A DNA stretch of 25,926 bases, taken from a bacterium (GTDB lineage: Bacteria; Elusimicrobiota; Elusimicrobia; Elusimicrobiales; CAZFMJ01). Position 1 is the first letter of the stretch, and each line of letters opens with the position of its first letter. A program made the position numbers and the translations under genes. The stretch is taken from positions 1-25,926 of the forward strand of contig JBDRGJ010000028.1 of NCBI GenBank assembly GCA_043817835.1, read 5' to 3'. Below are positions 53 through 25,874 of this stretch, in pieces. The notes beneath the pieces are model-generated. The model was not told the DNA's origin. It saw nothing but the letters and a program-made list of their open reading frames with translations, and searched no databases.

Positions 53-95
53 ACAGCCTAACTGCCTATAGCCTAATCTCCTACAGCCTGTCTCC
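53..95. repeat. Degenerate 7/8-mer tandem array (nnnGCCTA-like) overlapping the wbqC stop
   Basis: acagccta/actgccta/tagccta/atctccta/cagcctg; the 14-mer tagcctaatctcct (69-82) recurs exactly at 19875-19888. Confidence 0.6.
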
Positions 96-860
96 CAACG
101 CTCTCCTTAGAATATTTCCCGCTTCCCTGCCCGCATGAAAAATCAGATCAACGGCAGAGAGATTGGAAATGAATTCTGTCCCGTATTGCCTGTAAACAGG
201 GTGCCTGAATTCCTGAAAAACGACTTTTATGCCGGCTTTTTCAAAGATTCCCGGGTCCATGTAATCCCTTCCGCCGGCCCCTGCCAGATATGTGTCCGCC
301 CCGAATCTCCGGCACAGGTTCACCAGGCGTTCGCTGGCCCGGCCTGCCACTGGCGTGCCGCAAACCTCGGTCTCTGACCGTGCCTGCTCAGGGCCTCTGG
401 CCGGAAGAACAGGCGCTGGTGCCTTGCGGCCTTCGATTCCGCAGGCCGAGGAAAATTCCATCTTTATCCCGATATCCAGCATTCCCCGGAGCATTTCCAT
501 TGAGGCCGCGTTTATCTCGGAGAGTTTTTCATACTCCGCCGCGTACAGCTTCTCAATGCGTTCCCATGCCGCCGGAAAACCGGCTGCCCTGGAGTATGTC
601 TGCCCCAGCGTCTTCAGATGTTTATGCTTCCACGGCACGGTGTTGTTGACGGCTGTCCCGTTTATGTTCTGCGGAAATTTGTGGAGCACCGGAACGGTCA
701 GCCATTGCGGTCCGGAGGAAGACATAACTTTATTGCGGTTCTGCCATTCGTTTTTTTTGAACTGGACATCATCCAGCACGAGAAAAACATCGCACTGCAG
801 CATCTTCGCGAAATAGCCGAGCCAGGGCATGAACTGGGGCTGGTGAGCGGCGAGTATCAT
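81..860 (-). CDS. wbqC: WbqC-like family protein (full-length copy, with a 29-aa in-frame insert)
   Basis: N-terminal HQPQFMPWLGYFAKM...DDVQFKKNEWQNRN, YLAGAGGRDY, F.HPVYRQ and NLSAVDLIF motifs typical of the WbqC family. Confidence 0.9.
   Translation of the reverse strand: MILAAHQPQFMPWLGYFAKMLQCDVFLVLDDVQFKKNEWQNRNKVMSSSGPQWLTVPVLHKFPQNINGTAVNNTVPWKHKHLKTLGQTYSRAAGFPAAWERIEKLYAAEYEKLSEINAASMEMLRGMLDIGIKMEFSSACGIEGRKAPAPVLPARGPEQARSETEVCGTPVAGRASERLVNLCRRFGADTYLAGAGGRDYMDPGIFEKAGIKVVFQEFRHPVYRQYGTEFISNLSAVDLIFHAGREAGNILRRALGDRL
340..431. repeat. 87-bp palindromic in-frame insertion in wbqC
   Basis: cggcc direct repeat at 340-344 and 427-431; outer inverted repeat gccgcaa (357-363)/ttgcggc (424-430); inner hairpins cggtc-tct-gaccg (368-380) and ggcc-tct-ggcc (392-402), the latter inside gcctgct/aacaggc. 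Confidence 0.6.
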
Positions 861-916
861 GAGCAGGACCTTTGATGAAAACTTGTATTGGGCAAATATG
901 GGCGGGGCTTATGCGC

Positions 917-1135
917 CTAAAGACTGTGAAAAATTGTTTCGGAGGCAAAAATCTGCGTGCCGCTTTTCAAGCCGGCAAAAAGCGGAATTTTTCCGGACGA
1001 TGCCGGCAGAATGCGGATTACGGTCCCGTTTTTGATTTTTCCGAACATTTTCGGATTCTTTACAAGAAATCTGACAAAAGCAAAAGCTTCTCCGATATTT
1101 CCGCGCAATTCCATTTTATCCGTCCGTTTTATCAT
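917..1135 (-). CDS. Small hypothetical protein (72 aa), putative partner of a TA-like pair; resembles DUF5647-type proteins from memory
   Basis: ATG at 1135 overlaps the upstream stop (ATGA); NIGEAFAFVRFLVKNPKMFGKIKNGTVIRILP; start moved from the ORF-track 1171. Confidence 0.6.
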   Translation of the reverse strand: MIKRTDKMELRGNIGEAFAFVRFLVKNPKMFGKIKNGTVIRILPASSGKIPLFAGLKSGTQIFASETIFHSL

Positions 1136-1455
1136 AAATCCCTCGTCTTCAGAAATCGTTCGATATACCAATCAACCCGGTCGGCCAGGTCTTGTTCCGC
1201 GTATTCAATTATTTCATCCAAAGTCCCCAGTTTCAATAACGTTTTTTCCACCAGGCGTCCTTTGGTGTCCAACACATCACGGTGCGGGAAATCATGGGCG
1301 TTATCGTATCGCACGACCGGCTTCCATTTTCCCCGCACATGCAACTCAAGCTGAACAAGGAACTGTTTGACCTTTCCCTGTCGCAAGTTGAACTCAAACC
1401 GCAGTCTGATATCGTCGTTTGAACCGATGGGTTTGAAGAAAAATTTATTCCCCAC
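1132..1455 (-). CDS. Small hypothetical protein (107 aa), putative TA-system component with an RYDxAH motif (DUF6516/DUF7718-like from memory)
   Basis: W.PVVRYDNAHDFPHRD motif, GTG start, translationally coupled to 917..1135. Confidence 0.65.
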   Translation of the reverse strand: MGNKFFFKPIGSNDDIRLRFEFNLRQGKVKQFLVQLELHVRGKWKPVVRYDNAHDFPHRDVLDTKGRLVEKTLLKLGTLDEIIEYAEQDLADRVDWYIERFLKTRDL

Positions 1456-1461
1456 GATTAA

Positions 1462-1490
1462 AGTATATCAGAAATCCCGTCTCACATCAA
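1462..1490 (-). promoter_or_regulatory. Sigma70-type promoter TTGATG-17nt-TATACT with extended -10 (TG), predicted leaderless transcript
   Basis: -35 at 1490-1485, -10 at 1467-1462 preceded by TGA; GTG start at 1455 lies 6 nt after the -10; no SD present. Confidence 0.65.
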
Positions 1491-1504
1491 TTTTCGTTTT
1501 CCGT

Positions 1505-1649
1505 CCCAAATCCTCGGCTAACGCCCATATATGCTCGTAACATTTTTCACCTTCTTGGTGTAGCTGCCCGATTCATCGGGCTTTCGATTACAGCGCCGAT
1601 AAATCGGCAGGCTACGGGAGAAAAAATTATCCTTAGCCGAGGATTTGGG
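1505..1649. mobile_element. MITE-like non-autonomous element (145 bp)
   Basis: Perfect 17-bp terminal inverted repeats cccaaatcctcggctaa (1505-1521)/ttagccgaggatttggg (1633-1649), flanked by the 6-bp direct repeat ttccgt (1499-1504, 1650-1655); no transposase. Confidence 0.8.
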
Positions 1650-1778
1650 TTCCGTCTTCTGCCATTCGTTCTTCTTGAACCGCACGTCATCCGGCGCGAT
1701 AAAAACATCGCACTGCAGCATTTTCGCGAAATAGCCCAGCCAGGGCATGAACCTGGGTTGATGAGCGGACAGTATCAT
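1518..1778 (-). pseudogene. wbqC: Truncated wbqC 5' fragment (about 40 homologous codons, then reads into the MITE)
   Basis: 1657-1778 matches 739-860 at 106/122 nt (manual alignment); ATG overlaps the kinase stop (ATGA). Confidence 0.85.
1560..1615. repeat. Inverted REP-like doublet (REPIN-like) inside the MITE
   Basis: GTAG-ct-gcccga-ttca-tcgggc (1560-1581) and the inverted copy gccga-taaa-tcggc-agg-CTAC (1595-1615). Confidence 0.65.
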
Positions 1779-12586: not shown

Positions 12587-13987
12587 ATGGTATTTATGCT
12601 GAAATCCTTGAGTGACGAAAATTATACGTTTCTGCTGATAGCGCTGGCAGTTTTGGTCAGGGTTACGGCTTTTGTCGGATTAAACGGCGGGTATGACGAT
12701 ATTGCGTATGCAAACATAGCATGGCAGATAGCGCATGGAGTTTTTAGCTGGACCGACTCCATAGACCATTACGGCAGCCGCTATATGGTCATACTGCCGG
12801 CGGCACTGTCTTATAAGTTTTTCGGATTCGGGGACTATTCTTCCGCACTTTTTCCTTTTCTCTGCTCCATAGCCCAGCCGGTTATGCTCTGGAAGATTCT
12901 CATTGGAATGAATTTAAGCCGTGAGGGGAGGTGGGCCGCGCTGTTTCTGGCGATATTTCCGGTCAATGTAATATACGGGACCATGCTTTATCCGAATGAG
13001 ATAACAGCATGTTTGGTAACGGCAGCGGCATTGATGTTTTTAAAGCAAAAAAATTCGCATCTTTTCACAAGCGGGGTTTTTCTGGCGCTTGCCGCGCTTA
13101 CCTATGCGCCGAGCATCGTCCTCGCCTCGGTTTTTATCCTGTACAGGGGCGCCCATCCGGGGGACAGGCGGAAACTTGCGGTATCATGGTGCGCGGGTTT
13201 TGCGGCCGTAATAGCGGCGGAAATGCTGTTTTCATATCTTTTGACGGGACAATGGTTTTGGCACGTAAAGAGCCTGTACAATGCCATGGAAGCATTTAAA
13301 AACTTCACGGAGTACAGCCTTTGGATTTATCCCAAAGCCATGTTTGCCGGCAATCTTTATGGATTGTCGTTATTCGGGATGTATTACCCGCTGACGATGG
13401 CAGCCATAGCGCTGATAACAGTAAGGGGAGAGCTTGAAAAAATCCTGTTCCCGCTTTCATGGCTGGCGATTCTGTTCGCAGTCCATGAGTTCGGAAGCAA
13501 AAGCCTGATAAGATTTGACGAGATATACAAACAGCTCCGTTTTCTTACCGTGCTTTCGGCTCCGGCATGCTGGATACTCGGACATGCTGCCGGGATATTA
13601 TGGCGGGAGCACCGAAGAAAAACAGTTTTGTCGGCCTGTTTTCTGCTTTTTGCAACTTCCATTACCGGGGTTCACTGCATGCGCAGATACCGCATAAACG
13701 GAATGACGCAATGGAAAGAGGCCGCGGCATTTCTGGAAAGCGTCCCGGAGCTGCCGCTGTGGACCGACGCACATGCGGACAGCCTGAAGCTTAATACGCT
13801 GATGGAAAGGAATCGTCTCTGCTCTTACTATGAGGTTGACCCGGCCGACCCGGCATGCGCCAGACCGTTGAAAGAGATGGATGTGGTTCTGCGGACCAAG
13901 GGATATCTGGTAACGTTCAGAAAACTCAAGGCTGTGCCGGAAAGAGTTTTTGCCGGCGGCCTTGCAGCATACCGGCTTCCTCTTTGA
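12587..13987 (+). CDS. ArnT/PMT-like (GT-C, family 39/83-like) membrane glycosyltransferase
   Basis: GYDDIAYANIA acidic first-loop motif, multiple TM helices, YPNE, KQLRFL; the only supported plus-strand gene. Confidence 0.8.
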   Translation: MVFMLKSLSDENYTFLLIALAVLVRVTAFVGLNGGYDDIAYANIAWQIAHGVFSWTDSIDHYGSRYMVILPAALSYKFFGFGDYSSALFPFLCSIAQPVMLWKILIGMNLSREGRWAALFLAIFPVNVIYGTMLYPNEITACLVTAAALMFLKQKNSHLFTSGVFLALAALTYAPSIVLASVFILYRGAHPGDRRKLAVSWCAGFAAVIAAEMLFSYLLTGQWFWHVKSLYNAMEAFKNFTEYSLWIYPKAMFAGNLYGLSLFGMYYPLTMAAIALITVRGELEKILFPLSWLAILFAVHEFGSKSLIRFDEIYKQLRFLTVLSAPACWILGHAAGILWREHRRKTVLSACFLLFATSITGVHCMRRYRINGMTQWKEAAAFLESVPELPLWTDAHADSLKLNTLMERNRLCSYYEVDPADPACARPLKEMDVVLRTKGYLVTFRKLKAVPERVFAGGLAAYRLPL

Positions 13988-15383
13988 ATTTTTCAGGGTT
14001 GTCCGCCGGAACAACCGGGATGGATGCGGCATACCGCCTTGCGACTATCGCCGCAAGCAGCCAGAACGGCTCCATCACGCGGACTATGATGAACGTGTTC
14101 ACGCCCAGAGTCTGGACAAAAAGGGCGATAAGCAGGATGCACAGGGCAAAGCCAAGCGCTTTGTCGGTGTCGTTCCCGGGATTTCTGTAAAGACCGGCGC
14201 CTGTTTTCCAGATGCGCAAAAGCATCCACAGGAAAAGCGACAGGCCAAGCAATCCTGTCTCCCCCAGGACCAGCGGGATCTGGGAGTCGACAATGCCCAC
14301 TCCCGGGACGCCCCACCCCAGCAGGGGATGTATTGGGAATTTTTCGAAAAATATCCTTTGCCATGCCAGCACCCTGGCAGCGGCCGAAGACTCCAGCTTG
14401 ATTTCCGCACCCGGGCCGACATGGAACGTCACGCGCACGCGTTCTTTGGTCTGAAAGGTAAAAAGCACACGTTCCTGTATCGTGTCTTTTATGACCGGGG
14501 AAACCACTGCAATGCCTATTGTCATGCACAGGATAACCGCGGCAAGATGTATTTTTTTGCGGCCGGTCATGACAATGGCTGATACCGTCATCGCGGCGAA
14601 AGCCAGATAAGACGTCCTGGAAAGAGTGAGCATGAAAAGAGGAGCAATGAGCACGAACGAAATGATGCTGAGTTTTGAAACACGCCCTTTGACCTGGGTA
14701 TAGAAGCCCAGGAGCACTGCCATCACAATCAGATAATATCCGCCGGCAGTGGCCGGCTCGCCCCAGGATTTCTGGCCCATCGGCGATTCAAAAGGAAGGG
14801 CCACCCTGAAACCACCTCCCAGGATAAAATACTGCGTTGCGCCGTACGCGATAACGACGGCTGCCGTTATGGCCCCGCAGATGAGGTAGGCCCTGATGTT
14901 TTTTTCATTTTCGATAATGTTTGCGGCCAGCAGGAAAAGCATGAAGTACTCGATGTATTTGAGCACATAAAAAAAACTTTCGGCAAAATGCAGCCTTCCC
15001 GAAACGATGCCCAGAGAGGTCGACAAAACGCATACTGTGATGTAAAGGAATATCGGCAGATTGACCGGGGTGGAAAAGAAGAAGGCCGTCTCTTTTTTTA
15101 TGGCGCTTCTCGCGAGCCATGAGAAAAAGACCACAAGCACCAGGATGTCGTCGTAGCGGATGACGACGTCCCGGTATCCAGTGCGGCCCAGGCCGATTTC
15201 AGGGGACAACAGCATCGAAAACACAAGTATCCCGAGGCCTGTTTTAGGCGAAAAAAAGGTGAGCAGGGCTGCCGTTCCACCCAGAAACACCAAGAGCGTC
15301 CCCGCGGACGGAGCAGAAACAGCGACTCTGCCCATTAAAATGGAAAGAAAGGCAGCGGCGATAAATAAAAGAAGGCGCGGCAT
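13926..15383 (-). CDS. O-antigen ligase/Wzy polymerase family protein
   Basis: About 12 TM segments; TLSRTSYLA; periplasmic loop SAAARVLAWQ..HPLLGWG; follows wza-wzc. Confidence 0.85.
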   Translation of the reverse strand: MPRLLLFIAAAFLSILMGRVAVSAPSAGTLLVFLGGTAALLTFFSPKTGLGILVFSMLLSPEIGLGRTGYRDVVIRYDDILVLVVFFSWLARSAIKKETAFFFSTPVNLPIFLYITVCVLSTSLGIVSGRLHFAESFFYVLKYIEYFMLFLLAANIIENEKNIRAYLICGAITAAVVIAYGATQYFILGGGFRVALPFESPMGQKSWGEPATAGGYYLIVMAVLLGFYTQVKGRVSKLSIISFVLIAPLFMLTLSRTSYLAFAAMTVSAIVMTGRKKIHLAAVILCMTIGIAVVSPVIKDTIQERVLFTFQTKERVRVTFHVGPGAEIKLESSAAARVLAWQRIFFEKFPIHPLLGWGVPGVGIVDSQIPLVLGETGLLGLSLFLWMLLRIWKTGAGLYRNPGNDTDKALGFALCILLIALFVQTLGVNTFIIVRVMEPFWLLAAIVARRYAASIPVVPADNPEKFKEEAGMLQGRRQKLFPAQP

Positions 15384-15412: not shown

Positions 15413-17308
15413 TCAGCCGTTTGGCTTTTTCAGCTCATCAGGCTGAGAGTACTGTCCATAATCGTAGTAATAGCCGTAGTAGGGGCCGATTTCCGAAGTC
15501 TTCATTCCGTTGAGCACTATGCCTATCATGTTTGCCCTGCCGGCGACAACCTGTTCCTTGGCCCTGCGCAGGGCCCCACGCGCCATTTTGCCCGCCTTGT
15601 AGACCAGAACGACCCCGTCCGCGTGCCGCGAAACTATCACCGAGTCCACAAACAGCAGGACAGGCGTACAGTCCAGTATCACCAGATCGAAGCTTTCCCG
15701 CCACGCCCTCTCCAGGTCCTTCCAGAGCCCCGAGTCCAGGGTATTGACCACATTCGGGACCGGCATCCCCGCGGGTATTATCTTCATGTTGTCGATGCCG
15801 GGGAAGCGGATAAGATGGTCCGGGTTGAATTCTCCCATGATGAAATCCGAACTGCTGGTCAGTGTGTCTTCCCACTTAGCCGCACCGGAAAGTATGTCGC
15901 TGAATCCCGGCTGGCGCCGCAGCCCGAATATGTCATGCAGGGACGGGCGGCGCATATCGGCATCCACCAGCAGGACCCGCAGGCCGGCGTGCGCCGCCGA
16001 TATGGCGAAATTGACGGCTGTCAGGGTTTTCCCTTCGGCTGAACCGGCTGAGCTGAAAACAAGGACCGAACTCTCCTTCGACCCCAGATGGGAAGCGATG
16101 TTGGAGCGCAGGCTGTGATAGGATTCTATTACAGGGGATTTGGAACTGTGGGTGAAAACAAGGACCTGCCTGAAGGAGTCCATGTTGTAGCGCGGCTTTT
16201 TGAATATGTCCATCAGCCAGTTTTCCATATACTTCGGGCTGTGCATATGGGGGATTACGCCCAGCACGGGGAGTTCGGTCAGGCGCTCTATTTCCTCTAT
16301 GGTGCTTATGGAGACGTCCAGATTCTCCAGAAAAAAAGCCAGAGCTATGCCGAGGAAAAGCCCCAGGATGCTTCCCATGGTGAAATTCAGCCATTTCACC
16401 GGGGAAACCGGAGCTTCCGGGGGGACCGCCCTGCTTACCACGCTTACGAAGGACACCACCGAAGCCAGGACTATCTTTGCTTCCTCATACTGACGGTTAA
16501 GCGTCGTGTAAAGACTTTCATTAATGCGCAATTCCCGAGTAAGCCGCACAAGCTCGGTTTCCTGGGCAGGCAGTTCCCCCAATTTGGACTGTATGGTCTG
16601 TATCCGCTGGTCCATTTCAATGACATTGGGGTGGTTCTGGGTGTATTTTTCCAGCAGATTTTTTCTCTTTGTCTCCAGGTCTATCAATTGGCTGGAAAGA
16701 GCGCTCCCCAGCCCTGTCCCGGGGTTCTGCTCGAGGAAGTTCTGCCGCGCCCTTTCTATGGAACGCAGGGACTCTTCCACCTCGTTCTTGCGCGCGGCCA
16801 CGTCTTCCAGCGTTTTTTTTGCCTGCCGGCTTCTTTCTTCAAGGTCATGGGCCATATAGGCCTCGACCACGGCATTTACAATGTCTGCTGCCAGCAGCGG
16901 GTTTTCAGCTGAAGCGGAAATGGTTATCAGGTTTGAGCCTTCTTCCCGCGCGGGCTTGTAGGATGCGGCGGTCCTTGCGGAGGCTTTGTGTATATCTTCC
17001 GGCGAGGAGGCTTCGGTTATCCATCCAAGATGCCGGGCGGCTTTTTCGGCGATGTCCACCGACTGGATTATGCGTATTTCAGTTGCCACCATACCCCAGG
17101 GGTCCCAGGTGGTTACATCCGCCCCGGGAATCTTGGAATAAGAGGGGGGCGGCTGGATTCGCACCATGGCCTGGCTTCTGTATACGGTGGGTTGGAGGCG
17201 GGTATAGAAAGCGGTGGAGAAAAGGGTCCCGGAGAAAGCCAGCAGTACGGCCCACCTGCGCCGTTTTATCACCCGCCAGTAGTCATGAAGGGTAAGTTCG
17301 GGAGTCAT
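15413..17308 (-). CDS. wzc: Wzc/GumC-like polysaccharide co-polymerase tyrosine autokinase
   Basis: Two TM segments flanking a coiled periplasmic domain; ESYHSLRSN; Walker A SAGSAEGKT; VDADMRRP; C-terminal Tyr cluster YYGYYYDYGQY. Confidence 0.93.
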   Translation of the reverse strand: MTPELTLHDYWRVIKRRRWAVLLAFSGTLFSTAFYTRLQPTVYRSQAMVRIQPPPSYSKIPGADVTTWDPWGMVATEIRIIQSVDIAEKAARHLGWITEASSPEDIHKASARTAASYKPAREEGSNLITISASAENPLLAADIVNAVVEAYMAHDLEERSRQAKKTLEDVAARKNEVEESLRSIERARQNFLEQNPGTGLGSALSSQLIDLETKRKNLLEKYTQNHPNVIEMDQRIQTIQSKLGELPAQETELVRLTRELRINESLYTTLNRQYEEAKIVLASVVSFVSVVSRAVPPEAPVSPVKWLNFTMGSILGLFLGIALAFFLENLDVSISTIEEIERLTELPVLGVIPHMHSPKYMENWLMDIFKKPRYNMDSFRQVLVFTHSSKSPVIESYHSLRSNIASHLGSKESSVLVFSSAGSAEGKTLTAVNFAISAAHAGLRVLLVDADMRRPSLHDIFGLRRQPGFSDILSGAAKWEDTLTSSSDFIMGEFNPDHLIRFPGIDNMKIIPAGMPVPNVVNTLDSGLWKDLERAWRESFDLVILDCTPVLLFVDSVIVSRHADGVVLVYKAGKMARGALRRAKEQVVAGRANMIGIVLNGMKTSEIGPYYGYYYDYGQYSQPDELKKPNG

Positions 17309-17330: not shown

Positions 17331-17462
17331 CAGGCTTTTAGGCTGTAGACAGTCAGGCTATTTGGCCAGTAGGCGGGTAAGCTTGTGGGCGCTGAAAAGC
17401 ATACCGGCTTACCCGCTTACAAGCATACCAGCTTACAGTCTAAACAACCTGAACAGCTGCCT
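17331..17462. repeat. Fold-back array of degenerate 8-mers in the wza-wzc spacer
   Basis: ggctttta/ggctgta/ggctattt/ggccagta/ggcgggta ... cttacccg/cttacaag/cataccag/cttacagt; core stem gcgggtaagc (17372-17381)/gcttacccgc (17407-17416). Confidence 0.6.
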
Positions 17463-18168
17463 ATTTCCTTGAAACGATGCCCACGGTTATGGCAAAGGTG
17501 CCGAGTATGGCCCATGGCACGAAATTGTCTGCAAGCCACTTGGCGGTGACAGAGAAGGGCTTACGCGGCACAAAAATTATGTCTCCGGCGCTCAGCGTGA
17601 TGTCCCGGTCCATATCCCCGTCCAGCACAGCCTTGAAATTTACGGTAAAACTGCTGTTCTCATCCTGCCCCTGGCCTTTCTGTCGAAACACCTTTACCCG
17701 CGAGGTCCTTGCGTTGGCATCCAGGCCTCCGGCTTTGGCCACAAGGTCCAGAAGTTTCATACCGTCCCTGTAATCATATCCGCCAGGAGCGCGCACATCG
17801 CCGATGAGGAAGACCTGTCTTAAGGCGAACCTGCGCACATTCACGGTAATCTGCGGATTGGATATGAATTTGGACAGCCGCTGCGTAAGTTTTTCCTGAA
17901 TCTCCGAGGTGGTAAGATCTTTAACTGCCATGGAGCCGACCAGCGGCATTTCTATCGTTCCGTCCGGCTGCACCGTTATCTCCCTTGAAAATTCCTGCGC
18001 AGGAAAGACGTTTATGCTTATGATGTCCCCGACTGCCACGCGGTATTCCTTGGGCGCGTAAATGGCGGACATGGCTTCCGCGACCCCGGCCGGAATGAAT
18101 GGCATCTCCAGGGCGGCGGCAAGAACCGGATTGAAAGTTATTAGAAAACAGAGAAGGATCTTGATCAT
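17461..18168 (-). CDS. wza: Wza-like polysaccharide export (OPX) protein, Poly_export plus SLBB domains
   Basis: YRVAVGDIISINV...VQPDGTIEMPLVG; VFLIGDVRAPGGY; LSAGDIIFVP; start set at MIKILL (SD-like GGGG upstream). Confidence 0.88.
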   Translation of the reverse strand: MIKILLCFLITFNPVLAAALEMPFIPAGVAEAMSAIYAPKEYRVAVGDIISINVFPAQEFSREITVQPDGTIEMPLVGSMAVKDLTTSEIQEKLTQRLSKFISNPQITVNVRRFALRQVFLIGDVRAPGGYDYRDGMKLLDLVAKAGGLDANARTSRVKVFRQKGQGQDENSSFTVNFKAVLDGDMDRDITLSAGDIIFVPRKPFSVTAKWLADNFVPWAILGTFAITVGIVSRK

Positions 18169-18225
18169 GGTTTTACCCCGCATTAGTTGTGCTGCTGAAG
18201 ACCGGGCGACCTGGAAGCCGGCGGC

Positions 18226-18858
18226 TTAATTGCGGCCGGCAAGAGATTTTATTATAACCCTGAGTTCCTCTATTTTTTCTTCGAGCTCATCGGCGCGTTC
18301 GGACGAAAATTCCTTCCGGCCGGTTCCCTGTCCCAAAGATGCTGTTTTCTGCTCAAGCTGGCTTACCCGCCAGGAGAAATCCTGCAGTTTCCGGTCCAGC
18401 GCATCCGCAGTCGCGCCGGAAGAGACCGGCGATGAGAGAACGGTCCATGCGATGAGCCCGAGCGATGCGGCCAGCCCGGCCCCGCCCAGGAAAAGAAGAA
18501 AATGCATGGAGATAAGAGCGCCGATGATTACCGTTATCAATGAGACCAGCGAGGCCAGCAGTATTATTTCCTTCTGCTCGTCCCATCTGCCGCCGGTCTT
18601 TCTCTGTGAAGGATGCGGCGGCCTTTCTGTCGGGGCGGCGGCATCCCCGTGATTGCCGCTGCGCGCAGGCATGCGGGAGTCGTAAGGGGAAGAAGTCCCG
18701 GCAGGACCCCTTCGCGCGGGCTCGGAGGCGGCGGGCGGATATAATCCGGACGAATCCGCCAGCGGGCCGCTTTTTTCGTGGGATACCGGAACACCGTCTT
18801 TTTTTAAATCGTCCCTGAGGTCGTTCAGGATATCTTTCAGTTCGTCAATATCGGACAT
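18226..18858 (-). CDS. Hypothetical membrane protein: N-terminal helix, Pro-rich linker, two TM helices, C-terminal coiled coil
   Basis: IILLASLVSLITVIIGALISMHFLLFLGGAGLAASLGLIAWTVL; ADELEEKIEELRVIIKSL; ATG start at 18858 preferred to TTG 18876. Confidence 0.8.
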   Translation of the reverse strand: MSDIDELKDILNDLRDDLKKDGVPVSHEKSGPLADSSGLYPPAASEPARRGPAGTSSPYDSRMPARSGNHGDAAAPTERPPHPSQRKTGGRWDEQKEIILLASLVSLITVIIGALISMHFLLFLGGAGLAASLGLIAWTVLSSPVSSGATADALDRKLQDFSWRVSQLEQKTASLGQGTGRKEFSSERADELEEKIEELRVIIKSLAGRN

Positions 18859-18883
18859 GTTATTGATTACCGGCAACTGCTCA

Positions 18884-18933
18884 GGTTCAAGGTCCAGAGG
18901 TTCCGGAAAACCATGAACTGTGAACCTTGAACC
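18884..18933. repeat. Imperfect hairpin built of GGTTCAA-like 7-mers
   Basis: ggttcaaggt (18884-18893)/accttgaacc (18924-18933) perfect 10-bp arms. Confidence 0.6.
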
Positions 18934-18958
18934 GGGGACCTTCTACAGCCTGTTCCCC

Positions 18959-19738
18959 TTACGTGTCCCTGGTTGTATTGATGCCTTTCTTGAGGCGTCT
19001 TTCCCACTGGTCAAGCTCCTTTTCCCTGTCCTGCATGGACCGCTCCTTGTCTGACAGGAGAGCGGCCCTGTCCTCCAGGCCTTTGCGTATCTTTTCAAAC
19101 GTCCGTAAAAGCTCGGTTTTTTTCGCGGCGAATTCGGCCGTCATGGTTTTTTCTCTTGTCTCCACATGGGCAAGACGGTCCCGGTGCTGTTTTTCCGCGG
19201 CCCGGGTCTTTTCCTCCATGGACTTGCGCATGGTTTCCCAGAAAGACGACATTTCCTTCTCCTTGCGGTTCAGGTCTTCGTACATCTCCCGGATCGATTC
19301 CGCGTGCCTTGAGTTGAACTCGGTCTCCGTCCTGAGCAGCTTTTCCCGCAGGTTTTCCATGTCGGCTTCCCTGTCGTCCAGGGCTTTCAGCAGCTCTTCC
19401 GCCCTGCTCTTTTTGGCGCGAAGCTCTTCCACCATCTTTGCCTCGCGCCCGGCGTAATCGCCGATGGTCTCTTCCAGGCCGGCGGATTTTTTTTCATATT
19501 CCTTTTTCAGCTTCTCCGAAACAAGATGTACCTGCTCTTTGAACAGCTTGTCCCCCTCCGGCATCAGCCGGCCCAGCGATGACAGCTCCCCTCGGAATTC
19601 TTCTATGATGACCTGCAGCGGGACGGCCGCCGGGTTGTCATCTTTCCAGAGCTGTTCGCACAGCGCGGTGAGCCGTTCCCACAGCTCGTTGACGCGGGCT
19701 GACTGGTGCGTTTTCGCCTCGGGAGCGGTATCTTTCAT
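18959..19738 (-). CDS. Hypothetical coiled-coil protein (259 aa)
   Basis: E/K/R-rich, proline-free after residue 60, no TM segment; co-oriented with neighbours. Confidence 0.85.
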   Translation of the reverse strand: MKDTAPEAKTHQSARVNELWERLTALCEQLWKDDNPAAVPLQVIIEEFRGELSSLGRLMPEGDKLFKEQVHLVSEKLKKEYEKKSAGLEETIGDYAGREAKMVEELRAKKSRAEELLKALDDREADMENLREKLLRTETEFNSRHAESIREMYEDLNRKEKEMSSFWETMRKSMEEKTRAAEKQHRDRLAHVETREKTMTAEFAAKKTELLRTFEKIRKGLEDRAALLSDKERSMQDREKELDQWERRLKKGINTTRDT

Positions 19739-19746
19739 AAGCGTAT

Positions 19747-19752
19747 ATTATA
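19747..19752 (-). promoter_or_regulatory. Possible -10 box (TATAAT) 8 nt before the ATG at 19738, possible leaderless start
   Basis: Perfect TATAAT and no SD, but no convincing -35. Confidence 0.35.
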
Positions 19753-19976
19753 TCCCTTTTATAGGGATTGGGTAGAGGGTATACACCCTCTGCAAGCCGG
19801 AGGCCCTGTTCCGGGTGCGGCCAAAGGCCGGGGTTCAGGGTAGAACAACATGCTTTATCCCGTATCCTTGTTGTTAGCCTAATCTCCTGTTCGCCTGTCC
19901 TCTGGACGCCCCGTTTCAGGCCGCTCGATTCTATCGCACTTTCAGGCTATGCCGCTTTGAAAGTGCTGGCGGCATA
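19752..19976. other. Hairpin-dense intergenic spacer
   Basis: Stems at 19752-68, 19772-93, 19804-40 (with 19818-30), 19844-75, 19893-921, plus interleaved repeats at 19936-76. Confidence 0.55.
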
Positions 19977-22900
19977 TTACCGGGGTTTAGCTTTATTCTT
20001 ATATTCCAGTATTGTCCTGTTGAGTTCGTCCCGGAGCTTCTCTATGCGCGCCTGCTTTTCTTCGTGAACCGTCTGGGCCGCGCGCCGGGCTGATATCCAT
20101 TCCTGCTCCCGCCTGCGCAGCTCTTCCTCCTTGCCGAGCCACTGCTCCTCCCTGGCCCGCGTGGCTTCTTCCATCTGGACGAGCCTGGCGTTAAGCGACG
20201 TTTCCAGGTTGTCCAGCTCCTGCCGCCTGCGCTCAAGTCCCCCCAGAAGCCCCGCTTTTTCCTTTCCAACGGCATTTTCCTTTTCCTCCAGTGCGGCCCT
20301 GCGTCCGGCCAGATGCTCATCCGCCTGATTGAGCTTCAGCCGGTACTCCTGCTCCAGTTCGCTTATTCTTTTCATCTGCCGTTCTTCCAGTTCGCGCTGG
20401 CGGGCTTGGAAATCCTCCATGGATTTCTTGTAGGCTGCCGCCTGTTCGGCCATCCTGTCGGCAAGCAGCCTGGACGAATCCTGCGTTGTCCCGGTCATTC
20501 TTTCACCCAGCTCCATTATCCGCGAGCGGGCATCCTCAAGCTGCTTGTCCCTGCGGTCCAGCTCTTCGAAGAGCCTTGCCTTTTCCGATTCCCGGGACTG
20601 CTCCGTTGCCTTGGCTCTTGCGTTGAGGGCTGCTTCCAGGTTGACCAGTTCAAGCCTTCTGCGCTCGAATCCGTCCAGAAGCTCCGCTTTTTCCTTATCC
20701 ACGGCTTTCTCCTTCTCCTCCAGCTCGGCCCTGCGCCTGGCCATAAGCTCGTCGGCGCGGTCGAACCTGGATTTGTATGTCTGCTCCAGTTCGCGCTGGC
20801 GGGCCTGGAACTCCTCCATGGATTTTCTGTATGCGGTCTCCTGCCCGGCCATCCTGCCGGCAAGCATTCTGGACGACTCCTGCGTTGTTTCGGCCATCAT
20901 GGCGCCCAGTTCCACTATCCTGGAGCGGGCTTCTTCAAGCTGTTTGTCCCTGCGGGCCAACTCCTCCGTAAACCTTGTTTTTTCCGACTCCCAGGCCTGC
21001 TCCGCGGCCCTGACTCTTGCGCCGATTTCGTCATCTCCTGTACGGGACCGGGCCCGTGCTTTTTCGGCAAGTTCGGTCTTGAGCTTCCGGTATTCCGCTT
21101 CCGAGCGCTCCGTCCGCTCCAGCCATTCCCTTTCGAGCTGCAGCCTGCGGTCCTCCAGGGCTTTTGACCCCTCCGCATAGGCGGCTTCCCACCGCGCCAG
21201 GTTTTCAGCCGCGGCCATATTGTCGTCCGTGGTCTTGGCTGCAAGCAGGGATTCCAGTTCGAATATCCGGGCCTGCAGGCGGGAGACGGCCTCTTCCCGG
21301 CGGGCGGTATCCGCCTCGCGTTCGCTCTGGCGGGAGGCTTCCAGCTCCGTTTTCGCGGCCAGCAGTTCGGCGGCGTGCGTTTTCTGCTCCTCCAGCAGCT
21401 TATGTCCCATCTCAGAGGCTCTTGCGGACGCGGCTTCGGTCCTGGCGCGGGAGTTTTTAAGCTCATCCTTCAGCTTTTGCGCCTCCTCCTCTGCCCGGGC
21501 CTGAGCCGCGGCGTTATTGCGCTCAAGTTCCTGGCGGCGATTTTCATGCTTTTCCGCCAGTTCTCTTTCGGCCGATTCCATCACCGCCGCGCAGGCCTCT
21601 TTTTCATTTCTTGTCTTGACGATATCCATCCTGCGAAGTTCCTGCTCTTTCTGCCTGTAAAGCTCCTCAATCCGCGCTTTCTCCTCGTCAAGCGCCTGCT
21701 GCCGGGCCCTGAAATCCTCGTTAAGCGCGGCCTTGTGGGCCTGGACTTCGTCCTGGGCCCGGGCCCGGACGGACTGAAGCTCGTTTTCCAGATGGGCCTT
21801 GCGCTCCCGGTATTCCTTTTCAATTTCCGCCGATTTTTTCGCAAGCGTGTCATGCTCGAGCGCGCGCAGCTTCTCCGACCACTGGTTTTCCCGGGCAGCC
21901 ATCTCGTTTTTGAGGCCGGTTATGGTCTTCTCGCCGTTCCGGAGCTCCTTTATAAGGGACTCTTTATGTTCCAGATATTCCTTTTCAATTTCCGCCGATT
22001 TTTTTGCAAGCGTGTCATGCTCGAACGCGCGCAGCTTGCCGGGCCACTCAAGCTCCATGCCTGCTATCTTTTCTTTGGCGGCTTCCGCCTCCGCATCCTT
22101 TTTTCTGAGTTCGGACAGTAAATCTTCTATTTCAGATTTGTGATTCAGCTCTGTCTCGGCCTGCCGCTGTTCCCATTCGTTTTTCAATTCGGAAGACTGC
22201 GTAAGAAGCCTGTGCCTGACATCGTCCAGTTCCGAGCTGAGCGCGCGCAGACTCTCTTCCCTGGCGCCCACCGCGGCCCAAAGCTGCTTCCTTTCCTTAT
22301 CAAACCCGTCGCTCCGGGCCTGCAAATCGGCCTCGTACTCCGCGACGCGCTCACGAAACATCTTTTCGTATTTTATGGAAAGTTCGGCCTCCAGCTTTTC
22401 AAGTGCGCGCATGTGTCTGGAGCTCTCTTCGTCCTTGTTGTTGAGCGCAATCTCGAATTCGCGTCTTTCCTCGGCCATCGACTGCTGCTGCGTCTCAAGG
22501 CTTTGAAGCATTTCGGCCCGCGACCGCTTGAGCTCCGCGTCAAGCTGCTCATGCCTGGCCTTAAGCCTGGATTCAAGTTCCGCGCGATGGGATTCATATG
22601 CGGCTTCAAGTTCCGCCGTCTTTCGGGTCAGGGTATCCTGCTCCAGAACGCGCAGCTTTTCCGACCAATGGTTTTCAAGGGCCGCCATTTCGTCTTTCAG
22701 AGAGATCATGGCGCTGTCCCGGCGCTGTATCTCCTTTATAAGGGTCTCTTTCTCATTTTCAGCCCCGGCTCTCAGCGCGGAGGCAAGTTTTTCCGTCTCC
22801 TCTTCAAACCCGGCTTTGGCACAGGCGGCCTCTGTCTTGAGCCTGTCTATCTCGACTCCGATATTCCCGACAGACTCCTCCCGCGCCGCTATCTCCGAGC

Positions 22901-25874
22901 GGAACTGGGCCCGCTCCTTTTCAAAGCCTTCACGCAGAATCTTCAGGGCTCCTTCGTGCTCGAAAACGCGGTCCTGGAACATCTGTTCATATCTGGCCCG
23001 CAGTTCTTCCTCCCTGACCGCAAGGCCGCTCTCCCGGGAGTCAAGGTGTTTTGTCCTGGCTGCAAGCTCCTGTTCTTTCTGCCCGTAAAGGCCTTCAAGG
23101 TGTATTTTCTCCTCAGTCAGGGCGTTCTGTTTGTGCGTGTATTCGAAATCCAGGGTTTCTCTGCTCGCCTCGTGGCTGCGCGTTAATGTTTCAATGACTT
23201 TCTTATGCTCTGCTTCGGTTCTGGAGCAAAGCTGGGAATATTCGGCTTCGAGGCGGGATTCTTTTTCCAGCAGCCTGGCGGACATCTCTTCGTTGAGTTT
23301 CAGCTCTTTTTCTTCCGCGTGAGCCTGCACGGCCCGGCGTTCGTTTTCGAGCTCCCCGGTAAGTCTTTCGCATTTTTCTTTCAAGGCCTTCTGTTCAGCT
23401 TCCGCCCTGGTGTAAAGCACGGAATATTCGGCTTCGAGGCGGGATTCTTTTTCCAGCAGCCTGGAGGACATCTCTTCGTTGAGTTTCAGCTCTTTTTCTT
23501 CCGCGTGAGCCTGGACCGCCCGGCGTTCATTTTCGAGCTCCACGGCGAGCCTTTCGCATTTTTCCTTCAGGGCCTTCTGTTCAGCTTCCGCCCTGCTGCA
23601 AAGTATGGAATATTCGGCTTCCAGGCGGGATTCTTTTTCCAGAAGCCTGGATGACATCTCGTCATTGAGTTTCAGCTCTTTTTCTTCCGCGTGAGCCTGC
23701 ACTGCCCGGCGTTCGTTTTCGAGCTCCCCGGTAAGCCTTTCGCATTTTTCCTTCAGGGACTTCTGTTCCGCTTCAGCCCTGGTGCAAAGCACGGAATATT
23801 CGGTTTCCAGGCGGGATTCTTTTTCCAGCAGCCTGGAGGACATCTCTTCGTTGAGTTTCAGCTCTTTTTCTTCCGCGTGAGTCTGCACTGCCAGGCGCTC
23901 GTTTTCAAGTTCCCGGACAAGCTTTTCATATTTTCCTCTCCAGGCTTTTTGTTCCGCATCGGCTGAGGCGAACCGGGTTTCTTTTTCGGCCTTGACTTCG
24001 GCAAGCAGAGCGGCCTCTTTGGAAGCCAGAGCGGCCTGGCCTTCTGCCAGCTCGGTTTCTTTTGTTTTGAGACAGGACTCCAGCCTGGCTTTCTCTGTCT
24101 GCAGGCCTTCCATTTCCGTCTTGAGGGCGTCATAAAGGTCGCTCCGGAGGCGGGTCAGATCGGCTTCGGCGCGGGACTGGCGCTCCAGCGTTTCCTTTTC
24201 CAGGGAGATTTTCCTTAAGCGGTATTCCTCCTCCAGCTCGGCCGTCCTGCGGCTGACGGTTTCATATTCAAGCTTCCTGTAGCTCTCGGCCCAGGCGGCC
24301 TCGGTCTTCGCCATTTTTTCATGCGACCGCTCAAGAGCGGCCTCTTTATCCCGAAGCACGATCTTGAGGTCTTCTATCCTGCCGCGCGCTTCATTCAGCT
24401 CGGATGAGACCGGGGCAACGGCGGAAACAACCTCGTCCCGTATCCTTGAGGACAGTTCCGCGTCGCATGTGCGCTTTGTTTCCAGGAGTTCGCGTCCGTG
24501 CAGCTCGTCGCGCCGCAGCAGTTCCGCTTCCAGTTCGCGGCTCCCGGCCTGTGCGGCCTCAAGCTCTTTCTGCGCCGCTTCGAATTCTTTTGCGACCGAA
24601 ACCATTCCGGCTTCCAGACGCGTCTTTTCCGATTCCCAGGCTTTTTCCCGGAGGCCGAATCTTTGCCCGAGGTCTTTTTTGAGCGTTTCTGTTCCGGCTG
24701 AGAATTCATCGGAAAGCTCCCGGTTTTTCGCGGAATATTCGGCCTCAAGGAATGCGACCTTTTTGTGGACTTCCTGTTCCAGTTCCGCCCTTCTGGCGCG
24801 CAGGTCATCGCCGAGTTTTTCCCGCGCGGAGTCCAGCTCCTGTTCCTTTTCGGAAAGCTGCCGGGAGAGCCTGCGCACGTGTTCTTCCTGGACGGCGCGT
24901 TCCTCCTCCAGCTGCGTCGTCTTTTCCCTGAAGGCCGTTTCCCTCTCCTTCATCCGTTCCACCAGTTCCGCGTGGTGGCGGGCCTGCTGCATTGCCAGCA
25001 AGTTTTCCAGTTCCTTTATCTTTTCCTGGGCCGTCCTGAACTGGTTTTCGCGGATATGCTGTTCATCAAGAAGGCGGGAGCGTTCCGCCTCCCAGGTCTG
25101 CTCAAGTGATTTCATCCTTTTGGAATGCTCATCCTCAAGCCCGCGCAGCCTGGAGTCTAAATTCAGGCCGAGCATGGACTTCAGCTTCTGGTAATTGTTG
25201 TCCGATTCCGTTTTTTTGGAGGTAAATTCCCGCTCCAGCGCGGCGCGTCTTTCCTCCACGCCTTTTTCGGTCAATTTCAGGCTTTCCTCCAGCACGCCGA
25301 CCCTCTCCAGGAGTTCCTTTTCCCTGGAGGTAAATCCGTTTTCCAGGGTTTCCATGCGCTCCTGGTGCTCTTTTCCCAGCTTGTTCCGGAGCTCGTCATA
25401 GCGCGTCTGCGCTTCGCGCAGGCGCTGGGCGTACTGTCCTTCTACGTCCAGCAGCCGCTGGTTCCACCTCCGGACGGTTTCCTGCTGGGTGCGATCCAGT
25501 TCTTCAAAGCGTTTCTGATACTCCTCCGACATCTCGGCCCTGCGCCTCTCCAGCATGGCCTCCTGCCGGAGCAGCTGGGCCACGTCCAGCTTGCCGGAAG
25601 AGAGAAGCTCCATGGTCGCTTCCATCTTCCTGTGAAAGTTCTCCTGTTCCTCCAGTGTCCTGCTCCGTCCCTCCGTCGAATCCCGCAGCGCTTTCATCTC
25701 CCTGTCGAGCTTTTCGCCGGTATCCCGGGAAGATTTCAGTTCCCGCGAGATGTCGGCATTGGTTTTTTCCAGGGTCTGGAGACGTTCAAGGGCCCAGCGC
25801 AGGGTCATCCTGGCCGTATCCAGGCTGGTGACGTCGTTTACCAACTGTTCAAGATGGGTGTATTCGTTTTCCAT
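19977..25874 (-). CDS. Giant coiled-coil protein (1965 aa) with nested internal repeats
   Basis: Uninterrupted E/K/R/L/A-rich ORF; I count only three prolines; no TM segment, signal peptide or Walker A motif; SD-like GGAGG upstream. Confidence 0.92.
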   Translation of the reverse strand: MENEYTHLEQLVNDVTSLDTARMTLRWALERLQTLEKTNADISRELKSSRDTGEKLDREMKALRDSTEGRSRTLEEQENFHRKMEATMELLSSGKLDVAQLLRQEAMLERRRAEMSEEYQKRFEELDRTQQETVRRWNQRLLDVEGQYAQRLREAQTRYDELRNKLGKEHQERMETLENGFTSREKELLERVGVLEESLKLTEKGVEERRAALEREFTSKKTESDNNYQKLKSMLGLNLDSRLRGLEDEHSKRMKSLEQTWEAERSRLLDEQHIRENQFRTAQEKIKELENLLAMQQARHHAELVERMKERETAFREKTTQLEEERAVQEEHVRRLSRQLSEKEQELDSAREKLGDDLRARRAELEQEVHKKVAFLEAEYSAKNRELSDEFSAGTETLKKDLGQRFGLREKAWESEKTRLEAGMVSVAKEFEAAQKELEAAQAGSRELEAELLRRDELHGRELLETKRTCDAELSSRIRDEVVSAVAPVSSELNEARGRIEDLKIVLRDKEAALERSHEKMAKTEAAWAESYRKLEYETVSRRTAELEEEYRLRKISLEKETLERQSRAEADLTRLRSDLYDALKTEMEGLQTEKARLESCLKTKETELAEGQAALASKEAALLAEVKAEKETRFASADAEQKAWRGKYEKLVRELENERLAVQTHAEEKELKLNEEMSSRLLEKESRLETEYSVLCTRAEAEQKSLKEKCERLTGELENERRAVQAHAEEKELKLNDEMSSRLLEKESRLEAEYSILCSRAEAEQKALKEKCERLAVELENERRAVQAHAEEKELKLNEEMSSRLLEKESRLEAEYSVLYTRAEAEQKALKEKCERLTGELENERRAVQAHAEEKELKLNEEMSARLLEKESRLEAEYSQLCSRTEAEHKKVIETLTRSHEASRETLDFEYTHKQNALTEEKIHLEGLYGQKEQELAARTKHLDSRESGLAVREEELRARYEQMFQDRVFEHEGALKILREGFEKERAQFRSEIAAREESVGNIGVEIDRLKTEAACAKAGFEEETEKLASALRAGAENEKETLIKEIQRRDSAMISLKDEMAALENHWSEKLRVLEQDTLTRKTAELEAAYESHRAELESRLKARHEQLDAELKRSRAEMLQSLETQQQSMAEERREFEIALNNKDEESSRHMRALEKLEAELSIKYEKMFRERVAEYEADLQARSDGFDKERKQLWAAVGAREESLRALSSELDDVRHRLLTQSSELKNEWEQRQAETELNHKSEIEDLLSELRKKDAEAEAAKEKIAGMELEWPGKLRAFEHDTLAKKSAEIEKEYLEHKESLIKELRNGEKTITGLKNEMAARENQWSEKLRALEHDTLAKKSAEIEKEYRERKAHLENELQSVRARAQDEVQAHKAALNEDFRARQQALDEEKARIEELYRQKEQELRRMDIVKTRNEKEACAAVMESAERELAEKHENRRQELERNNAAAQARAEEEAQKLKDELKNSRARTEAASARASEMGHKLLEEQKTHAAELLAAKTELEASRQSEREADTARREEAVSRLQARIFELESLLAAKTTDDNMAAAENLARWEAAYAEGSKALEDRRLQLEREWLERTERSEAEYRKLKTELAEKARARSRTGDDEIGARVRAAEQAWESEKTRFTEELARRDKQLEEARSRIVELGAMMAETTQESSRMLAGRMAGQETAYRKSMEEFQARQRELEQTYKSRFDRADELMARRRAELEEKEKAVDKEKAELLDGFERRRLELVNLEAALNARAKATEQSRESEKARLFEELDRRDKQLEDARSRIMELGERMTGTTQDSSRLLADRMAEQAAAYKKSMEDFQARQRELEERQMKRISELEQEYRLKLNQADEHLAGRRAALEEKENAVGKEKAGLLGGLERRRQELDNLETSLNARLVQMEEATRAREEQWLGKEEELRRREQEWISARRAAQTVHEEKQARIEKLRDELNRTILEYKNKAKPR
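20184..21002 (-). repeat. Two-copy 133-aa (399-nt) coding repeat; copy 2 has an 11-aa insertion
   Basis: EQAWESEKTRF...LNARA versus EQSRESEKARL...LNARL; starts at 21002 and 20603. Confidence 0.85.
21811..22037 (-). repeat. 55-aa (165-nt) period coding duplication
   Basis: 21811-21872 versus 21976-22037 match at 60/62 nt (KLRA.EHDTLAKKSAEIEKEY). Confidence 0.85.
23214..23957 (-). repeat. Four tandem 62-aa (186-nt) coding repeats
   Basis: gacatctc anchors at 23281, 23467, 23653, 23839; one pair compared by hand differs at 16/186 nt. Confidence 0.95.

Follow-up and report, generated by a model that had tools for sequence, protein, structure and literature searches.

What are three genes, for a very long coiled-coil rod, a short rod, and a small membrane anchor, none of them recognizable as an enzyme, doing at the head of an operon-like block for polysaccharide export? 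The question is raised by contig JBDRGJ010000028.1 (assembly GCA_043817835.1), an entire 25.9-kb contig of a fragmented Elusimicrobiales metagenome-assembled genome (MAG; 416 contigs, 84% complete), whose 25,926 nt constitute the window analyzed here. According to its open reading frames (ORFs) and their translations, the minus strand encodes, in order, a giant rod protein of 1965 aa (19977–25874), a small rod of 259 aa that we regard as a putative adaptor (18959–19738), a membrane anchor of about 210 aa (18226–18858), a short Wza protein of 240 aa (17461–18183), a Wzc-type protein of 631 aa (15413–17308), and a Wzy-type polymerase (13926–15383), the last member of a conserved six-gene block. 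The first three genes are referred to below as the trio. An initial annotation of the sequence had placed them, co-oriented, 42 nt upstream of wza, and the coordinates, the minus strand, and the distance were all reproduced. Few envelope machines have been studied as thoroughly as the Wzx/Wzy-dependent pathways for capsule and exopolysaccharide, whose textbook set of components, to our knowledge, includes no structural partner in the cytoplasm. The answer proposed here, to which we give about an even chance, is that the trio forms an Elusimicrobia-specific, membrane-tethered cytoplasmic coiled-coil scaffold coupled to export by Wza, Wzc, and Wzy.

The tie to the exporter is first of all one of gene order. 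Anchor homologues in relatives led to 14 loci, all of which keep the order giant–small–anchor–wza–wzc–wzy. A second set of 80 loci was found through the giant, and 36 of the 45 that could be resolved (this window counted) contain the full six-gene block; the other nine comprise three in which small and anchor are followed by the end of the contig, two with a fusion of adaptor and anchor, and four with the giant alone. Median gaps along the block, from rod to adaptor, anchor, wza, wzc, and wzy, are 2, −4, 33, 1.5, and 11.5 nt, the 4-nt overlap being the commonest distance between the small and anchor genes. On the 5′ side lies the housekeeping run glmU–prs–L25–pth, while the content 3′ of wzy varies, with 12 different first genes in 22 loci; in the window, glycosyltransferases, a flippase, methyltransferases, and CDP-alcohol phosphatidyltransferases are found there. 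Because the genes past wzy vary while the block is packed, the six genes can be read as a single export module that behaves like the conserved part of a capsule locus, ahead of a part whose content depends on the glycan. The neighborhood survey that had been suggested as a check on linkage to wza and wzc has thus come out in its favor, given this operon-like spacing across Elusimicrobiales and a second gene order in distant Elusimicrobia that is described below. In addition, a consensus scan found no terminator-like site on the coding strand between anchor and wza.

Co-occurrence across genomes points in the same direction. Of 40 sampled genomes of relatives, 15 have the full anchor, and in 15 of 15 it is accompanied by an orthologous Wzc (46–65% identity); the remaining genomes have no full-length anchor. 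On a tree of the giant N-region, the state in which the giant stands alone requires at least three changes and the fusion one, and the block state is present on either side of the midpoint root. In at least three independent lineages in which the exporter has gone from the locus, adaptor and anchor have likewise been lost or reduced. The only Poly_export genes in the genomes with a lone giant are paralogues, and no adaptor or anchor was found anywhere in those genomes, except for one weak small-like match in G045 (E 8e-6). The link between trio and exporter is strong but not obligatory.

Since orthologues of all three genes keep the same order in dozens of genomes, the trio does not consist of chance ORFs. 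When the N-terminal 400 residues of the giant were searched against one genome per prokaryotic species, 108 loci were obtained, and every titled record among them is from Elusimicrobia or Elusimicrobiales. The rod family is rare, as its profile gave only 253 matches at E<=1e-3, 31 of them at E<=1e-30, among 1.84 billion representative proteins. In public records the rod goes by the names "hypothetical protein" and "coiled-coil domain-containing protein", and no Pfam domain has been precomputed for it. The trio had initially been described as uncharacterized and without a recognizable catalytic domain, and this description held: none of the three proteins, whose orthologues are conserved, reaches any Pfam or NCBIfam cut-off, and neither library detected a catalytic domain in any of them. 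Profile searches also assigned the trio to no known machine. Those of the PDB with two of the alignments returned nothing but nonsignificant matches to coiled-coil chains (CCDC153, vimentin, keratin, and Vipp1, among others); Foldseek found no match in the PDB for the model of the rod N-region, and an ESM Atlas feature search gave generic coiled-coil clusters only (0.87–0.92). A word-based homologue search with the small protein returned the query alone, and an Rfam search of the window and two relatives yielded nothing relevant. In the literature on coiled coils, filaments, and tomography of Elusimicrobia or on scaffolds of Wza and Wzc, no published account of the trio was found.

Three known classes were tried as homes for these proteins and rejected. 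An ATPase of the SMC/Rad50/MukB type lacks support, as the rod has no Walker A motif (G-x4-GK[ST] scan) and the SMC match on the coil of the small protein scores 23 bits against a cut-off of 729. For PspA/Vipp1/ESCRT-III there is no PspA_IM30 Pfam match, and the Vipp1 profile matches in the PDB have E ~0.2. A ruler of the WbdD type would call for kinase and methyltransferase domains joined to the coiled coil, and none of the three proteins has a catalytic domain. As for homology to known intermediate-filament-like proteins or coiled-coil-rich proteins (CCRPs), searches of Pfam, NCBIfam, PDB profiles, and Foldseek gave only generic, nonsignificant coiled-coil matches.

The giant itself consists of a conserved head and N-region, a helical rod of variable length, and a conserved tail. 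It is rich in E, R, K, A, and L, with E, K, R, and Q together accounting for about 44% of residues, and contains only 3 Pro in 1965 aa; no hydrophobic segment was detected (maximum 19-residue Kyte–Doolittle hydropathy, KD19, 0.68), nor was a signal peptide or hydrophobic N-terminus. The head domain (residues ~1–116; 25527–25874, minus strand) carries the motif DTARMTLRWALE, which is nearly invariant in the orthologue alignments, and an invariant Gly94. It is N-terminal without exception in 86 representative proteins of many lengths, paralogous rods of 700–1900 aa included. The conserved N-region extends over residues 1–340 (24855–25874, minus strand), and within the first ~330–340 residues orthologues share 40–59% identity. 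An AlphaFold2 (AF2) model of this region, built on a 62-row alignment, is all helical with a mean predicted local distance difference test score (pLDDT) of 84.8: a helix at 18–92 is followed by a break at 93–97, at the invariant Gly94, and by an unbroken helix at 98–339. Additional Elusimicrobia proteins of 700–1900 aa rich in E, K, R, and Q were seen at loci L119–L126 (e.g., L119:6116-9232 and L125:8601-14297), several of them bearing the same DTARM-type N-terminal head in neighborhoods without wza or wzc. By sequence, the head-bearing rods look like a phylum-wide family in Elusimicrobia.

Between the conserved ends, the middle of the rod varies, so that whole orthologues range from 726 to 2957 aa. 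In the window, Tandem Repeats Finder detects an in-frame array at 23221–23954 (minus strand; 186 nt × 3.9 copies, 62 aa per unit, 89% matches), which is a recent change of length. The conserved tail, the last ~70 aa (19980–20189, minus strand), ends in EL-x-R/K-A/T-I-x-E/D-Y-K-x-R/K in the alignment. A hidden Markov model (HMM) of this tail matches all complete, unbroken giants that have small and anchor, or the fusion, next to them. It fails in four of the five lone giants (L031, L042, L083, and L093), which share another ending, while the fifth, L073, retains a slightly degenerate tail. As the tail motif tracks the presence of small and anchor or of the fusion, the tail is the best candidate docking site for the partners. 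Hydrophobic periodicity of the giant peaks at 3.60–3.66 in most 200-residue windows and at 3.61–3.63 in 39 orthologues, with no signal at 3.5 in any of them; the whole-protein power is only ~4 sd over shuffles. Such values fit nonheptad (hendecad-containing) coiled coils or straight helical bundles. By AF2, Pfam, and periodicity, the giant has the architecture by which intermediate-filament-like proteins and CCRPs are defined, i.e., a long continuous amphipathic helix without enzymatic domain. The family to which the window belongs has one other genome, where the giant appears as two overlapping ORFs of 1276 and 843 aa (L013:4393-10615), which could reflect a frameshift or an assembly error.

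The small protein is modeled by AF2 (pLDDT 87.6) as a helix at residues 6–32, a turn at a conserved NP, and a single helix of ~215 residues at 38–252, the N-terminal helix–turn carrying a conserved L-W-x3-N-P-x2-V. It aligns to residues ~57–277 of the giant (hhalign probability 94.6%, E 7e-8, a score that coiled-coil composition can inflate), and is probably a miniature paralogue of the rod N-region with the role of an adaptor. No signal peptide or hydrophobic N-terminus was found in it. The anchor ORF opens at a TTG (18226–18876, 216 aa), and the alignment of 14 orthologues places the real start at the ATG at 18858, which gives ~210 aa. Its layout comprises an N-terminal amphipathic helix, a Pro/Ser-rich linker, a W-x-E-N-K-E-like motif, a hairpin of two transmembrane (TM) helices, and a short C-terminal helix. 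The hairpin (residues 100–147 from the TTG start; 18436–18579, minus strand; hydropathy maximum 2.91) is a hydrophobic span of 48 residues split by a polar turn, and is therefore taken as two TM helices; in the orthologues it measures 48–55 residues with a central acidic turn. Net charges of the flanks are near zero, which makes the positive-inside rule weak here, and basic residues directly follow TM2 in ~9 of 15 anchor sequences. From the acidic central turn, these basic residues, and the lack of signal peptides in the partners, we infer an N-in/C-in topology with both ends in the cytoplasm. The initial suggestion of a membrane-tethered cytoplasmic assembly is consistent with the absent signal peptides and the hairpin anchor.

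The exporter genes, by comparison, are ordinary members of the outer-membrane polysaccharide export (OPX), polysaccharide co-polymerase 2a (PCP-2a), and Wzy families. Wza begins 42 nt past the anchor stop and scores 85.5 bits for PF02563 (cut-off 28; 2.9e-24) and 42 bits for SLBB (cut-off 27; 7e-11); Poly_export followed by SLBB is the arrangement that defines OPX proteins. The protein is short, has a hydrophobic C-terminal helix, and has orthologues of 39–51% identity in the same position. Wzc exceeds the cut-offs of PF02706 (Wzz), PF13807 (GNVR), and PF13614 (AAA_31) and reaches 140 bits for TIGR01007 (cut-off 108); its translation shows a P-loop kinase domain and a Tyr-rich C-terminus, as befits a PCP-2a bacterial tyrosine kinase (BY-kinase). 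The wzy gene was identified by Wzy_C and occupies the same position in relatives. A side observation concerns Wzc: those associated with the trio have short cytoplasmic insertions (residues 355–369 and 485–497) that, in a simple alignment, are absent from the paralogous Wzc of the sister family f3, and these are possible docking sites.

Two natural variants are informative about how the parts may fit together. At L077 and L078, a 177-aa protein combines the N-domain of the small protein, a Pro-rich linker, and the TM hairpin of the anchor, and ends directly after TM2; the gene lies at L078:12187-12720, partial matches indicate the same adaptor–anchor fusion in G008 and G022, and no orthologous wza–wzc was found in the fusion genomes. 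As a Rosetta-stone fusion that joins precisely those parts, it suggests a joint action of adaptor and anchor, with the adaptor N-domain as the part required to reach the rod. The genes 3′ of the fusion encode a 392-aa protein without known identity and a 2193-aa TIG-repeat protein. The other variant is found in distant Elusimicrobia of high GC content (L097–L100 and L115; e.g., L099:7472-19101), where wza–wzc is followed, in this order, by a head-bearing rod of ~1000 aa that ends in a small nonhelical domain, by a single-TM protein rich in Pro, and by a Kelch/fn3 protein of ~1800 aa. The single-TM protein, product of the third gene, starts with a short helix, which a Pro-rich linker joins to one TM helix, and a periplasmic domain comes last; this C-terminal domain past the TM helix matches CBM48 weakly, at threshold. 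To judge from these layouts, what both anchor types have in common is a cytoplasmic N-helix with a membrane tether. Since this second gene order also keeps rod and exporter adjacent, their adjacency is hard to ascribe to frozen synteny alone.

Taken together, these features outline how a coupled scaffold might work. The giant would be a helical rod with hardly a break (~290 nm if helical throughout), whose middle appears to change length by internal duplication between the conserved head and tail. The 259-aa protein would serve as adaptor, and the two-helix hairpin would tie the assembly to the inner membrane. As the conserved 5′ part of one operon-like block, the trio would be expressed together with Wza, Wzc, and Wzy, and the scaffold would then most likely hold, space, or place the polysaccharide polymerization and export complex on the cytoplasmic face, the Wzc kinase domain being the obvious contact. 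We infer that the three proteins bind one another, contact Wzc, and affect export. A more specific version, offered tentatively and at a probability well below even, is a dedicated exporter cytoskeleton, in which the rod tail is docked to adaptor and hairpin and the head to the Wzc kinase ring, thereby fixing the position or spacing of Wzx/Wzy-type complexes. If true, it would be the first structural, nonenzymatic cytoplasmic component of a Wza–Wzc pathway, and its variants in other Elusimicrobia would extend through the membrane to a sugar-binding module in the periplasm. A four-chain complex prediction with the rod head (residues 1–135), the rod tail, the anchor, and, as the partner chain, the small protein, run without controls, scored 0.00, which is below the mark.

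Several observations weigh against the coupled scaffold. Synteny among kin is not independent evidence, and the gaps in the window are larger than the medians (238, ~100, 42, and 152 nt, in gene order) and hold repeats resembling repetitive extragenic palindromic (REP) sequences. G037, of family f3, has wza–wzc–wzy with a Wzc of 43% identity and no trio; the rest of this sister family of small genomes also lacks the trio and has only a paralogous wza–wzc pair (25–30% identity), which is preceded by a polytopic membrane protein. As both the G037 exporter and the f3 pair occur without the trio, export does not strictly need it. Conversely, in several genomes of at least three lineages the rod lies beside pth without adaptor, anchor, or orthologous exporter, and paralogous rods with the same head sit in unrelated neighborhoods; the persistence of lone rods and the settings of the paralogues argue for a role of the rod that is independent of Wza and Wzc. 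Finally, other families have pairs of giant and small without wza (L116 and L117). The exporter of G037, the rods beside pth, the paralogous rods, and the pairs of giant and small suit the main rival, by which the trio would serve Elusimicrobia in general as a cytoskeleton, a membrane skeleton, or a determinant of cell shape. It would then be a set of coiled-coil-rich proteins like crescentin or FilP that happened to become fixed between glmU–prs–L25–pth and the exporter, so that co-transcription would be historical rather than functional. We regard this as a possible reading, though one whose probability also falls distinctly short of even. It leaves unexplained why full anchor and orthologous Wzc go together in 15 of 15 genomes, why adaptor and anchor are lost or reduced whenever the exporter is lost, why distant lineages keep a head-bearing rod by wza–wzc in a different gene order, and why six genes are packed like a single operon when those past wzy vary.

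Other functions for the rod are less probable. The fourfold variation in the length of its middle between conserved ends, together with the recent expansion of 62 aa × 3.9 in the window, would suit a molecular ruler or spacer, with an evolvable length (726–2957 aa) that is tuned by tandem repeats and sets a distance, e.g., that from one export site to the next or from the membrane to some other structure. This is unlikely, as there is no identified quantity for it to measure, a polymer outside the cell is beyond the reach of a rod in the cytoplasm, and structural coiled coils normally vary in length too; the ruler idea of the initial annotation, which had drawn on WbdD, was not borne out, as the trio lacks a catalytic domain such as WbdD has, and its polar-adhesin idea fared no better. 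Slighter still is the probability that the proteins are not coiled-coil rods but amphipathic helices on the membrane surface, comparable to PspA/Vipp1 or to lipid-binding 11-mer repeats, and that they cover or reshape the inner membrane when polysaccharide export puts the envelope under stress. The periodicity of 3.60–3.64 without a 3.5 signal in the window protein and its 39 orthologues is compatible with such a coat, but the same periodicity fits nonheptad coiled coils such as, reportedly, Scy; the very weak Vipp1/PspA profile matches are nonsignificant, and a lipid-binding helix would not need a dedicated TM anchor. Least credible of all is that rod and adaptor are exported as a surface fibril or sheath component, secreted with the polysaccharide. 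The position beside envelope export genes and the giant surface-like Kelch/fn3 or TIG-repeat proteins downstream in the distant gene order might suggest it, yet rod and adaptor have no signal peptide or hydrophobic N-terminus, the hairpin, with its acidic turn and the basic residues that follow TM2, favors cytoplasmic ends, and Wza/Wzc systems are generally known to export glycans rather than proteins.

The cytoplasmic scaffold coupled to export finds its closest parallels in architecture. In its supposed manner of working, the trio is most like Scy/FilP, other CCRPs, and TipN/PodJ, as analogy suggests. Scy and FilP of Streptomyces are intermediate-filament-like polarisome proteins that act with DivIVA near the tip-located glucan synthase CslA, and Walshaw, Gillespie and Kelemen in 2010 reportedly derived a periodicity of 3.64 from a 51-residue repeat in Scy. 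Like the giant, they are long cytoplasmic rods without enzymatic domain, in which short conserved ends flank a long rod; they share the nonheptad periodicity (3.6–3.64 here), and in both systems the genes of a large and a small paralogue are neighbors. Scy/FilP, too, are associated with a place where polysaccharide is made, in their case by CslA at the hyphal tips, but their genes do not lie with cslA, and deletion of Scy/FilP does not move the tip glucan (PMC6224456). The trio differs in having its own two-TM anchor gene and in forming one block with Wza, Wzc, and Wzy, and it has no detectable sequence or profile homology to Scy/FilP. Crescentin and other cell-shaping CCRPs are likewise lineage-specific helical rods beneath the membrane, defined by architecture rather than by sequence. 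Crescentin is heptad-based, with stutters and linkers; it is not known to have a membrane hairpin of its own as a partner, as the giant does, or to be linked to an exporter of glycans, and no homology was found.

The combination of a membrane anchor with a long cytoplasmic coiled coil recalls TipN and PodJ, polar landmark proteins of Caulobacter. PodJ is required to place the holdfast, which is exported by homologues of Wza and Wzc, and this follows the same logic as the positioning role proposed for the trio. However, anchor and coil lie there in one polypeptide and here in three genes, and again there is no homology. The analogy drawn initially with WbdD is that of a coiled coil whose length matters in a glycan pathway. 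WbdD of the E. coli O9a O-antigen carries kinase and methyltransferase domains and acts in an ABC-transporter pathway, whereas the trio has no catalytic domain and the pathway here is Wzx/Wzy-dependent.

On the evidence of sequence and gene order, the trio is a real, conserved, unannotated, and phylum-restricted system, a putative coiled-coil scaffold that is unusual in its operonic tie to a Wzx/Wzy exporter. Few coiled-coil scaffolds are on record from bacteria, and this would be a new family among them. A phylum-specific set of rod, adaptor, and anchor that is inherited across an order as the head of a wza–wzc–wzy module points to a cytoskeleton-like spatial organization of glycan export. 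Natural variants can be compared directly: lone rods with another tail, the adaptor–anchor fusion, anchors with periplasmic domains, and rods that differ fourfold in length. As Elusimicrobia have barely been cultivated, even a basic cell-biological role would be new for the phylum.

Some smaller features of the locus complete the description. The spacer between giant and small (19739–19976, 238 nt) consists mostly of dispersed REP-like repeats; two of its sub-segments recur at ~40 places in the same MAG, and no T-tract terminator was found on its coding strand. The spacers at 18884–18933 and 17369–17420 contain inverted repeats of 14–16 nt, one led by GTAG. By sequence, these repeats look like REP elements or miniature inverted-repeat transposable elements (MITEs) that have invaded an otherwise packed operon. 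Scans for consensus promoters and terminators gave counts no higher than those in shuffled sequence, and the consensus may not fit Elusimicrobial promoters. An additional coiled-coil gene of 820–940 aa lies between anchor and wza at L046:13520-15985 and L049:6587-9403. Beyond wzy, the sole plus-strand gene of the locus (12587–13987) encodes a PMT_2-type (ArnT-like) glycosyltransferase and is situated between wzy and a pair of CDP-alcohol phosphatidyltransferases. At the far end of the window (81–1778), a complete WbqC gene (81–860), a DUF7718 gene (1132–1455), and a truncated wbqC start (1518–1778) suggest the end of a glycan locus that has been rearranged.

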